From NCBI GenBank assembly GCA_009783605.1, contig WRDE01000001.1:1-27803 (forward strand): DNA of 27,803 nt, read 5' to 3'. Shown piece by piece: positions 3,904-21,960 of this stretch (its first letter is position 1; each line of letters starts with the position of its first letter). The position numbers were made by a program, and so were the translations under genes. The notes beneath the pieces were generated by a model, which was not told the origin of the DNA, made no database searches, and saw only the letters and a program-made list of their open reading frames with translations. Source of the DNA: Oscillospiraceae bacterium. GTDB taxonomy: Bacteria; Bacillota; Clostridia; Oscillospirales; Acutalibacteraceae.

Positions 3904-4827
3904 ATGGCATTTACCGCGAAGGATGTACAGGCGCTGCGCGAGAGAACCGGCGCCGGTATGATGGATTGTAAAAAAGCGCTGACCGAGACCGACGGCGATA
4001 TGGAGAAAGCGGTGGATTTCCTCCGCGAAAAGGGATTGGCTGCCCAGGCGAAAAAGGCCGGCCGGATCGCCGCCGAAGGCGTCGTATTTGCCACCGTCGA
4101 TACGGCGGCAAAAGTCGGCGCGGTAGTCGAAGTCAACGCCGAAACCGATTTTGTGTCGAAAAACCCCGATTTTATCGCTTTTGTGGAATCGGTGGCCGCC
4201 GCCGTCATCAAATATAACCCGGCGGATGTGGAAGCGCTGCTGCCGCTGCCCTGCGCCGGCTACGGCTCGGTGGAGGAAGCGCTGCGGGACAAGATTTTTA
4301 TCATCGGCGAAAACATGAAGATCCGCCGGTTTATCCGGTATGAGGGCGACTGCGCCGCTTATGTCCACGGCGGCGGCCGGATCGGCGTGCTGGTAAAATT
4401 CAGCGCCGACGCCACAACCGCCGGCGGCGCCGCGCTGGCCGAATGCGGCAAGGACGTGGCGATGCAGATCGCGGCCCTCAACCCGCTCTATTTAGACGAG
4501 GCGGCGGTCCCGGCGGAGGATATCGCCCGGGAGCGCGAGGTGCTGATCGCCCAGATCAAAAACGACCCGAAACTGGCCGACAAGCCCGCCAATATCATCG
4601 ATAAGATGGTGGACGGCCGGATCGGCAAGTTCTATGAGAACAACTGCCTGCTCAAACAGGCCTTCGTCAAAAACGGCGATATCACCGTCGCCCAATATGT
4701 CGCCGATTGCGCCAAAGCGGCCGGCGGAGCTTTCTCGATCGCGTGCTTCACCCGGTTTGAGAAAGGCGAAGGACTGGCAAAGCGGGAGGAAAATTTCGCG
4801 GATGAAGTCGCGAATATGATTAAGTAA
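3904..4827 (+). CDS. tsf: Elongation factor Ts
   Basis: MAFTAKDVQALRERTGAGMMDCKKAL...KKAGRIAAEG...EVNAETDFV...AMQIAA...CLLKQAFVK...RFEKGEG. Confidence 0.99.
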   Translation: MAFTAKDVQALRERTGAGMMDCKKALTETDGDMEKAVDFLREKGLAAQAKKAGRIAAEGVVFATVDTAAKVGAVVEVNAETDFVSKNPDFIAFVESVAAAVIKYNPADVEALLPLPCAGYGSVEEALRDKIFIIGENMKIRRFIRYEGDCAAYVHGGGRIGVLVKFSADATTAGGAALAECGKDVAMQIAALNPLYLDEAAVPAEDIAREREVLIAQIKNDPKLADKPANIIDKMVDGRIGKFYENNCLLKQAFVKNGDITVAQYVADCAKAAGGAFSIACFTRFEKGEGLAKREENFADEVANMIK

Positions 4828-4841
4828 TCAACACATGCACA

Positions 4842-4879
4842 AGAAATCATTGCCGCGCCTTGGCGCGGCAATGATTTCT
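4842..4879 (+). terminator. Long hairpin after tsf (probable terminator or stabiliser; weak U tract)
   Basis: AGAAATCATTGCCGCGCC-TT-GGCGCGGCAATGATTTCT, an 18-bp perfect stem. Confidence 0.6.
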
Positions 4880-5024
4880 ATCTGCACCGACGCATATAGT
4901 CGGAATTTAACACATGGGATACTTCAATGAGAGTACCACGTAAAAAAATAGCGTGGAATTGGATTATATTGGAAATTCCGGGTTTATTTTATTTATGTCG
5001 AAAAAGTGAAAAAGCCATACCGGC

Positions 5025-5054
5025 TTGACAAGGCACTTAAAAAAATGTAATACT
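5025..5054 (+). promoter_or_regulatory. Candidate sigma-A promoter of the dockerin-MltG gene
   Basis: Perfect TTGACA followed by TGTAATACT at ~17-18 bp. The -10 register is uncertain. Confidence 0.55.
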
Positions 5055-5108
5055 TTTAGTTATGATATGATTGATCTCATAAAGACATCATAAGGCAGGA
5101 GTATTGTT

Positions 5109-6128
5109 ATGCTGCGAAAACGCATGTATTCTACGGTCGGGTTATTGTTGTCGCTGTGCCTGTTCACCGGTATCTTTCAGCCGGTACAGGCGGCGTTTCA
5201 ATGGGGTGATGTGGATGGTGACGGCAAAATCGGCGTGGGAGACGCCCGGCTGATCCTGCAATATCTGGTTGGAAAGACCGCGCTTACGCCGTCGCAGCTG
5301 GCTGTTGCGGATGTGGACGGCGACGAAAATGTGACGATAGCCGACGCGCGGAAAGTATTACAGTATTTAGTAGATAAAGTTTTTTCAATAAACCCGCCGT
5401 TACCCCTGACTGTCCGGGTCACTATTCCGGAGGGAAAGACGTTGGATGAGATCGCGGCGCTGTTAGAGAAAAAGCGGGTTTGTCCGGCAACGGATTTTTA
5501 CGCGGCGGTGCAAAACGGAGATTTTTTCGACTATGATTTTATTCGGGATCTTCCGGAATCGCCGGGGCGCGGTCACCGGCTGGAGGGATATCTGTTTCCC
5601 GATACATATGAATTTTATACCGACAGCTCCGCTGCGTCGGCTATCCGCCGGATGTTGAATAATTTTACCAACAGGATCGTCCCGCTGCGCCCGATTCTGG
5701 CCGAAAGTGACCGCACAATTCATGATATCGTGCTGATGGCTTCTATCATCGAGCGGGAGGTATACAGCGCGGCCGATATGAAAAGGGTCAGCCGGGTGCT
5801 GCATAACCGTTTGCATAATCCGGCGGAGTTTCCCCGTCTGCAATGTGATTCCACCGGCGAATATGTGGACAAAGTCAACGCCGCGGGGTATATCACATTA
5901 AAAGATGAGGATTATAATACTTATCAGCGCCGCGGAATGCCGGCCGGGCCGATCAGTAATCCGGGATTAAACGCGCTGACAGCGGCGGTTTATCCCTCGG
6001 AAGAGGCATCCGTGATATCCTGCTATTTTTTCGCCTCCGATATCACCACCGGCATCACGTATTTTTCAAAAACCTATGCCGAGCATGTCGAGATATGCGA
6101 GCGGTATAAAATCGGGGTCCACCAGTAA
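5109..6128 (+). CDS. mltG: Secreted dockerin-MltG (YceG-like endolytic transglycosylase) fusion
   Basis: Signal peptide aa 1-~28. Two Ca-binding dockerin repeats (GDVDGDGKIGVGDARLILQYLVG, ADVDGDENVTIADARKVLQYLV). MltG motifs VTIPEG, LEGYLFPDTYEF, MASIIERE (catalytic Glu), LQCDST, YNTY, GMPAGPISNPG, YFFA. Confidence 0.9.
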   Translation: MLRKRMYSTVGLLLSLCLFTGIFQPVQAAFQWGDVDGDGKIGVGDARLILQYLVGKTALTPSQLAVADVDGDENVTIADARKVLQYLVDKVFSINPPLPLTVRVTIPEGKTLDEIAALLEKKRVCPATDFYAAVQNGDFFDYDFIRDLPESPGRGHRLEGYLFPDTYEFYTDSSAASAIRRMLNNFTNRIVPLRPILAESDRTIHDIVLMASIIEREVYSAADMKRVSRVLHNRLHNPAEFPRLQCDSTGEYVDKVNAAGYITLKDEDYNTYQRRGMPAGPISNPGLNALTAAVYPSEEASVISCYFFASDITTGITYFSKTYAEHVEICERYKIGVHQ

Positions 6129-6357
6129 TCAACACATACACAAGAAATCATTGCCGCGCCAAGGCGCGGCAATGATTTCTTGTCTGCGCCGACGCATATA
6201 GTCGGAGTTTAACACATGGGATACTTCAATGAGAGCAGCGCCGTGCAAAAAATTATTGCGTGGAAGCAGACTATATTTGGATATTTCCGGTTTTTTTATG
6301 TCGAAAAAATGAAAAAAGCTGCACTTGCTTGACAAAATACCCAAAAAGTTGTAATGT
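6124..6357 (+). repeat. Direct repeat copy 2 (hairpin plus cvpA promoter)
   Basis: See copy 1. This copy has a 21-bp perfect stem at 6140-6183, TGTCGAA at 6299-6305 and TTGACA at 6329-6334. Confidence 0.92.
6329..6357 (+). promoter_or_regulatory. Candidate sigma-A promoter of the cvpA-pgsA-clp genes
   Basis: TTGACA-N17-TAATGT, followed by an AT-rich leader and SD AAAGGAG. Confidence 0.55.
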
Positions 6358-6408
6358 TATTTAGATATAAAATAAAATATCCATATACAGTGAAAGGAGC
6401 GGCGGAAA

Positions 6409-7143
6409 ATGGCATATCTGCTGGACTTTGCGGCCATACTCATCATTGCCCTGTCGATATTTCTGGGGGTAAAAAAGGGGCTGGTACGCGCCTTGATTTC
6501 GATGGCGGGATTCCTGCTGGCGCTGACGCTGGCCGGATTTCTCTGCAAGCCGATGGCCGGCTGGATCTACGGCGGCTCGATGCAGGAGAAGGTGATTGCC
6601 GCCGCCGAAACCGAGATACAGAAGAGCGGCACCGACAAGGTGCTGGAGAATATCGACCGGATCGCGTCGGAGCTGCCGGTTCTCGGAGGGGCTTCGGGGA
6701 AAGACTGGGTCGACCATGACGGCCGCCGGGCGGACCTGAATCAGGCGTTAGCCAAGGAGTCGGCCCCCACCGCTCGCCGGGCCGCCGAGATAGCCGAGGA
6801 AAAGGTGCTGGGGCCGATCGCGGTGACATTGCTGACCATTTTATGCTTTATCATCCTCTTTATCCTGCTGAACGTGGCGGCCTGGCTGTTCGGCATTTTT
6901 GCCGGGAAAATTTTTAACCTGCCGGTTTTGAAAACCTTCAACAAAGCGGGCGGCGGCATATTCGGCGCGGTCCGCGGTCTTGTGCTGGCTGTCGGATTCG
7001 CCGTGATCGCCAGTGTTGTTGCTTCCGGCGGCAGCGAATGGCTGAGTACCGCGGATCTGAATGATTCATTATTCTGCAAGACGATCCTCGACTTGTTTGC
7101 CAGAAACGGGTTGTTGAGCCAGTTGATGTCCCTGTTACCCTGA
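6409..7143 (+). CDS. cvpA: CvpA (colicin V production) family membrane protein
   Basis: LDFAAILIIALSIFLGVKKGLVRAL...NLPVLKTFNKAGGGIFGAVRG. This is the CvpA pattern with an inserted soluble loop. Confidence 0.85.
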   Translation: MAYLLDFAAILIIALSIFLGVKKGLVRALISMAGFLLALTLAGFLCKPMAGWIYGGSMQEKVIAAAETEIQKSGTDKVLENIDRIASELPVLGGASGKDWVDHDGRRADLNQALAKESAPTARRAAEIAEEKVLGPIAVTLLTILCFIILFILLNVAAWLFGIFAGKIFNLPVLKTFNKAGGGIFGAVRGLVLAVGFAVIASVVASGGSEWLSTADLNDSLFCKTILDLFARNGLLSQLMSLLP

Positions 7144-7229
7144 TAACCAACACATCCATAAACGCTCCGCGTTTGTCTGCGTTGCTACACAACTTTAGGA
7201 AACCAATTATTTATTATTTAGGAGTCGTT

Positions 7230-7796
7230 ATGTTGGTAGACGTAAAATTGACAGTACCCAATCTGCTGTCGTTGTTGCGTATCCTGCTGATACCCGTTTT
7301 CGTGGTGTTGTATCTGAGCAGCAGCGCGGAGAACTCCTGCCCGGCTTACTGGGCGTTCGGCGTGTTGTTTCTCTCCGGTGTGACGGATTTTCTCGACGGG
7401 ATTATCGCCAGAAAATTTAATCAGATCACCGATTTCGGCAAGTTACTCGACCCCATTGCTGATAAACTGACCCAGGTGGCGGTGGTGGTCGCTCTTGCCG
7501 TCCGCCATAACCAGTTGTTTATCCTGGCCGCCATCTGTGTTTTGAAGGAATTGATCCAGGGTATCGGCGGATTGCTGCTGCTGCGCAAAGGCGACGAGGT
7601 ACGGGGAGCGCGCTGGTTCGGTAAAGCGGCGACCTTTGTGTTTTATGGCGTGATGATCGCGATCGTGCTGATCCCGGACGAATATATGTCGGCGCCGCTG
7701 TTATACGGGCTGATCGCGCTGGTAGGCGCCGCGATGCTGGTCGCGTTTATCGGGTATATGAAGACGTTTATGACGGTGAGAAAAGATTTGAAATAA
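7230..7796 (+). CDS. pgsA: CDP-alcohol phosphatidyltransferase (PgsA-like)
   Basis: TVPNLLSLLRIL...SGVTDFLDGIIARKFNQITDFGKLLDPIADKL signature. Start corrected to ATG 7230 after SD AGGAG. Confidence 0.88.
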   Translation: MLVDVKLTVPNLLSLLRILLIPVFVVLYLSSSAENSCPAYWAFGVLFLSGVTDFLDGIIARKFNQITDFGKLLDPIADKLTQVAVVVALAVRHNQLFILAAICVLKELIQGIGGLLLLRKGDEVRGARWFGKAATFVFYGVMIAIVLIPDEYMSAPLLYGLIALVGAAMLVAFIGYMKTFMTVRKDLK

Positions 7797-21605: not shown

Positions 21606-21613
21606 CGGCTCGG

Positions 21614-21814
21614 TTTCCTGCGCGGTTCGCGGACCGCTGTCCAATAACCCTACTACACTTGGAATTCGGGAGCTTGGCTCCGCTGTGGGACTGCAGACCT
21701 CCCGCGGGAAGCATGACTTTCTGCGGACGAAGGGAGCGAGAAAACAGCGGGCAGGCACCCACCCTGCTTACGTTAGTAGCAGGTTATCGAGGACAGTTTA
21801 CGGCCGGGCGGGAA
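21614..21814 (+). ncRNA. ssrS: Probable 6S RNA
   Basis: ~200-nt rod. Closing helices TTCCTGCGCGG/CCGGGCGGGAA, CTGTCC/GGACAG and ATAACC/GGTTAT. Central bubble with GGGAGCT on the 5' side and GGCACCCACC plus a CCTGC/GCAGG hairpin on the 3' side. Apical helix CCGCTGT/ACAGCGG. These motifs are recalled from Firmicutes 6S RNAs; Rfam was not run. Confidence 0.75.
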
Positions 21815-21960
21815 TTTTATTTTAACAGCAAAAGCGCTGCGACGTACCAAAAACGCCGCAGCGTTTTTGAGTGGGGTTCGGGCCGGGCGGGAATTTTATT
21901 TTAACAGCAAAAGCGCTGCGACGCACCAAAAAACGCCGCAGCGTTTTTGAGTGGGGTTCG
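21802..21960 (+). repeat. 79/80-bp tandem duplication (6S 3' end plus terminator-like hairpin)
   Basis: 21802-21880 and 21881-21960 differ by one substitution and one A indel. Each contains AAAAACGC-CGCA-GCGTTTTT. Confidence 0.92.

Follow-up and report, generated by a model that had tools for sequence, protein, structure and literature searches.

A Dispersed Hairpin Repeat and a Duplicated Promoter Region Flank a Dockerin-MltG Gene between tsf and cvpA in an Oscillospiraceae Bacterium

Results

Gene Organization between tsf and cvpA

The analyzed window, a stretch of 27,803 nucleotides from an Oscillospiraceae bacterium, contains the rpsB-tsf genes, an open reading frame (ORF) of 339 amino acids with Dockerin_1 and YceG domains, and the cvpA-pgsA-clpC genes. 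The parts of the tsf-cvpA region described below all lie on the + strand. The tsf gene (EF-Ts, 3904..4827) ends in a TAA stop codon that is also the first triplet of a dispersed repeat unit (unit 1, 4825..4933). Unit 1 carries the head TAATCAACACAT and a tail ending in CTTCAAT, which is followed by GAGAG, and contains a long hairpin (4842-4879, loop TT) and a small hairpin (4887-4903) with a folding z-score of -7.1. Downstream lie the first copy of a promoter region (4934..5063; TGTCGAA at 4996-5002, TTGACA at 5025-5030, and TGTAAT at 5046-5051) and a non-duplicated leader with an AGGAG ribosome binding site (RBS; 5064..5108). The dockerin-MltG gene (5109..6128) encodes a signal peptide, a dockerin (amino acids 33-87), and an MltG/YceG catalytic domain, and repeat unit 2 (6126..6235) begins with its TAA stop codon. 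Unit 2 is the sister of unit 1 and forms a perfect hairpin with a flipped loop (6140-6183, loop AA) and a small hairpin (6189-6205). The second copy of the promoter region (6236..6368; TGTCGAA at 6299-6305, TTGACA at 6329-6334, and TGTAAT at 6350-6355) is located upstream of cvpA (Colicin_V family, 6409..7143), which opens the conserved cvpA-pgsA-clpC block. A third, short unit of the TAAYCAACACAT repeat family, absent from the earlier note on this DNA, is located directly 3' of the cvpA stop codon (7144..7206). Inspection of the ORFs of the window revealed no obvious recombinase or transposase, in agreement with the earlier note, and the three tyrosine recombinases of the genome are encoded on other contigs.

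The two direct repeats begin at 4823 and 6124, at the last codon and stop codon of tsf and of the fusion gene, with a spacing of 1301 bp (1302 bp past a 1-bp indel). Over the first 111/112 bp the copies show 94% identity, with one indel and six substitutions, two of which convert the TT loop of the hairpin into AA; the following ~130 bp align with 98 identities in 125 positions and 13 gap positions (72% identity by blastn). The similarity in this second half is far above chance (local alignment score of 105; none of 2000 shuffles scored above 39) and stops 5' of the RBS. The difference between the two halves is significant (7/112 differences compared with 35/127, Fisher P = 1.3e-5) and the drop from high identity coincides with the boundary of the repeat unit. 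The start points, the seven differences, and the stronger divergence of the promoter part that the earlier note had described are thus all confirmed, and the repeat pair is a composite of a dispersed unit of ~105-111 bp and a promoter duplicate of ~130 bp.

The longest identical stretch common to both copies is 28 bp and RecA-dependent excision between them, although possible, should therefore be rare. The same short identity, together with the differences between the copies, speaks against an assembly chimera across the repeat, a reading that might be favored by the fragmented state of the metagenome-assembled genome and by a tsf-cvpA adjacency that is unique to it. A second assembly (ENA, contig named k141) is identical across 6951 bp, although it may have been built from the same reads, and we regard a chimera as extremely unlikely.

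The earlier note had expected a single repeat and no insert between tsf and cvpA in relatives, a comparison that gene order does not permit: tsf and cvpA are adjacent in none of the relatives examined. The cvpA-pgsA-clpC order is conserved in the relatives, usually downstream of truA and a conserved gene of ~450 amino acids, and downstream of tsf lie pyrH or variable genes. The former upstream neighbor of cvpA is found in the present genome on contig C82, where it is followed by an unrelated gene. Judged from these gene orders, the tsf-cvpA junction is lineage-specific and not ancestral. No congeneric genome and no empty allele exists for comparison, and the three closest genomes yield no DNA match. 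The three closest relatives (L027:~7070-7790, L028, and L029) carry an extra ORF of ~230 codons directly 5' of cvpA, encoding a membrane protein that by eye is cvpA-like.

A Dispersed Family of Hairpin Repeats

A search of the genome (2.3 Mb, 77% complete) for further copies of 4823-4933 changed the interpretation of the 110-bp block, which the earlier note had taken as specific to tsf-cvpA: the block belongs to a dispersed family of units found at ~53 loci, mostly gene ends, an outcome that the note itself had named as a refutation. Members consist of an unpaired head TAAYCAACACAT, a hairpin that varies in sequence, and a conserved tail ending in AAACCAAT or ACTTCAAT. Exact heads occur 65 times in this genome, and the 40 relatives contain 0-2 each. 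Units number 68, spread over 53 loci, compared with two in a shuffled genome (about 70 units overall). A scan of 185,579 GTDB species genomes returned only single matches that lack the hairpin architecture and lie mostly within ORFs, a pattern scan of IMG/VR returned single unrelated matches or this assembly itself, and no Rfam covariance model matched the repeat at the gathering score.

The units are closely associated with stop codons. A same-strand stop codon is present at 31 of the 53 loci, and in 24 of the 53 the register is exact, that is, the TAA of the unit is the stop codon or directly follows it (79 out of 600 for random TAA triplets). Since a unit usually starts at a stop codon, with TAA as its own first triplet, the copied stop context that the earlier note had assigned to the fusion gene is the start of the dispersed unit itself. 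Units 1 and 2 are each other's closest kin, with all other units at ≤68% global identity. A partner with ≥90% identity at a different locus exists for 37 of 73 units, and an identity of 94% between units 1 and 2 is therefore ordinary for the family.

The units fold into stable stem-loops (z about -7) and 54 out of 65 contain a U-tract, a strong version of which is lacking in units 1 and 2; these two were not called in a terminator scan of the + strand. The predicted function of the units is probably that of terminators or mRNA-stabilizing hairpins.

As a multicopy, extragenic, species-restricted stem-loop at the 3' ends of genes, the family is REP/SPRITE-like. With the SPRITE repeats of Streptococcus pneumoniae (PMC3049150) it shares a species-restricted, interspersed hairpin of ~100 bp whose long stem precedes a U-rich tract, a location near the 3' ends of coding sequences, a probable terminator function, and the lack of a known transposase. 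In contrast to SPRITE, the stem of the TAAYCAACACAT unit varies freely between an unpaired head and tail that are fixed, no short terminal inverted repeat (TIR) was seen, and the units occur in head-to-tail arrays and are registered to the stop codon, which they often supply. With REP/REPIN elements (PMC3733652, PMC3116915) the family shares extragenic palindromes 3' of genes, high copy number, clustering, and the potential to act as recombination substrates, but the units lack a GTAG/CGTC tag, are longer (60-110 bp), and form doublets that are mostly direct and not inverted. The genome, at 77% completeness, yielded no RAYT/Y1 transposase (PF01797). The TAAYCAACACAT repeat is a new, species-specific family within this known kind of element.

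Several further observations concern the repeats and possible enzymes. TGAT precedes the head in 23 of 65 units and TTCAA is present at some tails, a pattern that we take to resemble the ends of IS605 under the rules for IS200/IS605 elements; neither TnpA nor TnpB was detected in this genome (77% complete). A role for reverse transcription was considered and rejected, as the sole reverse transcriptase found is retron-like and has no adjoining repeat unit. It carries a YCDD motif and is encoded 5' of an LRR-dockerin gene (L087:2058-3143, contig C193). Within the window, the 6S RNA (21612-21818) is surrounded, between 21308 and 22174, by palindromic units of a related type and by a second module (AATCAGCGAACAGGCG). 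The AATCAGCGAACAGGCG module also follows many TAACCAACAC units elsewhere in the genome, so that the repeats are modular, as BOX elements are. A separate, classical GTAG-type REP-like family is represented by 36 GTAGGGGCG matches, with no RAYT in the assembly.

Repeat units are about 10-fold enriched after the stop codons of dockerin genes (10/113 compared with 18/1838, P = 2e-6; e.g., on contigs C45, C18, C52, C85, C143, C230, and C280), and the enrichment persists if the comparison is restricted to genes that have a free gap downstream (10/70 compared with 15/978). We found no description in the literature of REP elements associated with dockerins in Clostridia. The repeat-bearing dockerin genes do not cluster on the dockerin tree (11 changes compared with 12.3 in shuffled data; an earlier clustering result was confounded by grouping) and the idea that dockerin and repeat travel as one unit is therefore unsupported.

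This enrichment, and the fact that the units bracket two successive genes at this locus, might suggest an active integron-like system in which the repeats are attC-like sites that capture and excise gene cassettes. The attC sites of integron cassettes have complementary RYYYAAC...GTTRRRY ends. As in a cassette, an imperfect palindrome lies 3' of the gene here; it begins at the stop codon, has an AAC-containing head, and folds strongly. Unlike those of attC, however, the ends of the units are not mutually complementary; head and tail are direct-like and both contain AACACA. Moreover, the gene has its own promoter, the units are dispersed and also follow core genes such as tsf, the window contains no integrase (IntI), attI site, or cassette array, dockerin and repeat form no clade, and a duplicated flank exists at one locus only. 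Overall, an integron-like system is highly improbable.

Origin of the Dockerin-MltG Gene

The YceG domain of the fusion protein matches PF02618 above the cut-off (185.5 bits). As in known MltG/YceG proteins (PMC8135044; PDB 4IIW, 2R1F), the SIIExE motif (here SIIERE) and the QxD motif are intact, and both glutamates of SIIExE are present, the catalytic one corresponding to E218 of Escherichia coli MltG (PMC8135044). The protein differs from these in that a signal-peptide-like segment and the dockerin replace the N-terminal membrane-anchor region and in that its domain stems from a second mltG that is specific to the lineage. The catalytic domain shares 66-68% identity with mltG2 of the same genome, the second gene of a tandem mltG1-mltG2 pair (L089, contig C30:700-3326; mltG1 is on a long branch), and groups with it as a sister (support 98/98). 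The dS between the two genes is 1.04 and even along the gene, with a dN/dS of 0.21. These values mark an old duplicate that evolves under purifying selection, and the divergence of the promoters likewise shows that the gene is old and retained.

In its signal peptide and dockerin the protein resembles the products of the genome's other N-terminal dockerin genes, and an origin of the signal peptide as a remnant of cvpA was ruled out by eye on account of this resemblance. The genome contains about 120 dockerin loci and a single weak cohesin match (L026:1200-1535, contig C339), which is located near two repeat units.

A second dockerin-MltG gene was identified in a relative (G023, protein P0003; L079:8001-8996 / L133, contig C9), where it is located between proC and an rny-like gene and no such repeat is present. 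Each dockerin-MltG domain is the sister of the mltG2 of its own genome and a common clade is rejected (AU test, P = 2e-5). The two fusions thus either had separate origins or underwent conversion in both lineages. A metagenome scan returned dockerin-only matches and no description of a dockerin combined with MltG was found in the literature.

The structure of the insert bears on one of the two mechanisms proposed in the earlier note, insertion with a long target duplication. An IS1634/IS1549-type element with dockerin-mltG as cargo could have duplicated a target of ~240 bp, a length within the 8-514 bp reported for the direct repeats of such elements (PMC2266710), and the copies are indeed direct and abut the insert. 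Yet neither TIRs nor insertion sequence ends are present at the termini of the insert, and the mltG2-homologous coding sequence extends right up to the TAA, which leaves no room for such an end. Searches of the 77% complete genome detected no transposase of the IS1634 (NF033559), IS110, TnpB, or Y1 type, and a target duplication is expected to diverge evenly instead of showing 94% followed by 72% identity. We consider this mechanism very unlikely; of the earlier proposals, a local duplication combined with insertion or replacement holds up.

Duplication of the Promoter Region

The promoter half is present in exactly two copies in the assembly, both collinear with a repeat unit, which shows that an old local duplication of repeat and promoter did occur. 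The TGTCGAA, TTGACA, and TGTAAT motifs are kept in both copies with equal spacing. This is the only pair among 50 repeat loci that shares promoter-like downstream DNA; in the remaining clusters the shared downstream sequence consists of additional repeat modules or of dockerin DNA. The regions upstream of cvpA in the relatives clearly match neither copy.

The two-step identity could have a different history, in which the promoter was duplicated alone long ago and the sister units were inserted later and separately at both stop codons. Local hopping of this kind would fit with units that target stop codons and with the near-identity often seen among neighboring units, and it accounts for the step from 94% to 72% without conversion. 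This history, however, requires that both insertions hit positions in phase with where the duplicated promoter begins, as the junction is collinear to within a few bp, although the targeting of stop codons would make such a landing partly automatic. Taken together, separate insertions are rather unlikely.

Discussion

We read the locus as the fossil of a gene duplication rather than as a mobile cassette, and its most likely history is an old repeat-assisted duplication with gene capture, after which the repeats were homogenized and the gene was kept by selection. An old one-off recombination would have duplicated the repeat and the promoter segment 5' of cvpA. At the 3' end the join was probably anchored by the repeat. 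The 5' end may have been set by non-homologous joining somewhere between the -10 box and the RBS, which would place the 5' junction of the captured gene within the leader (5064..5108) or at about 5063. A gene derived from the chromosomal mltG2 and fused to a signal-peptide-dockerin module would thereby have acquired a promoter and been retained by selection. A tandem duplication followed by replacement would lead to the identical end state. Later, the repeat halves were probably re-homogenized by conversion or copying; near-identical units are common in the TAAYCAACACAT family.

REPs are known recombination hot spots (PMC11708052). As in repeat-mediated tandem duplication and gene replacement, direct repeats here flank a duplicate gene copy and a promoter was captured. 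The present locus differs in that the duplicated flank includes unique promoter DNA and its two parts differ in apparent age. Some observations count against the preferred history. The middle unit resembles unit 1 throughout and is no hybrid with the unit after cvpA, so that a simple unequal crossover needs later conversion. The stop codon of the donor mltG2 shows only a faint head-like trace (AAACACA; a loose AACAC occurs at 22 of 1537 gene ends). Units 1 and 2 lack the strong U-tract seen in most units of the family and were missed by the terminator scan.

A more far-reaching reading is that the TAAYCAACACAT family represents undescribed, stop-codon-targeting mobile hairpins with their own mobilizing enzyme that help to reshuffle genes, with the present locus as a capture fossil; we regard this as unlikely. 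If true, capture would have given the dockerin-tagged MltG its promoter in a genome rich in dockerin loci.

Under the favored history of repeat-assisted duplication, the locus shows how small interspersed repeats and a local duplication can give a new fusion gene a promoter. It is of moderate interest for its new repeat family, the unusually exact registration to stop codons, and the bias toward dockerin genes. The separate origins of dockerin-MltG that the phylogeny points to in two relatives suggest selection for a scaffold-tethered peptidoglycan lytic transglycosylase.
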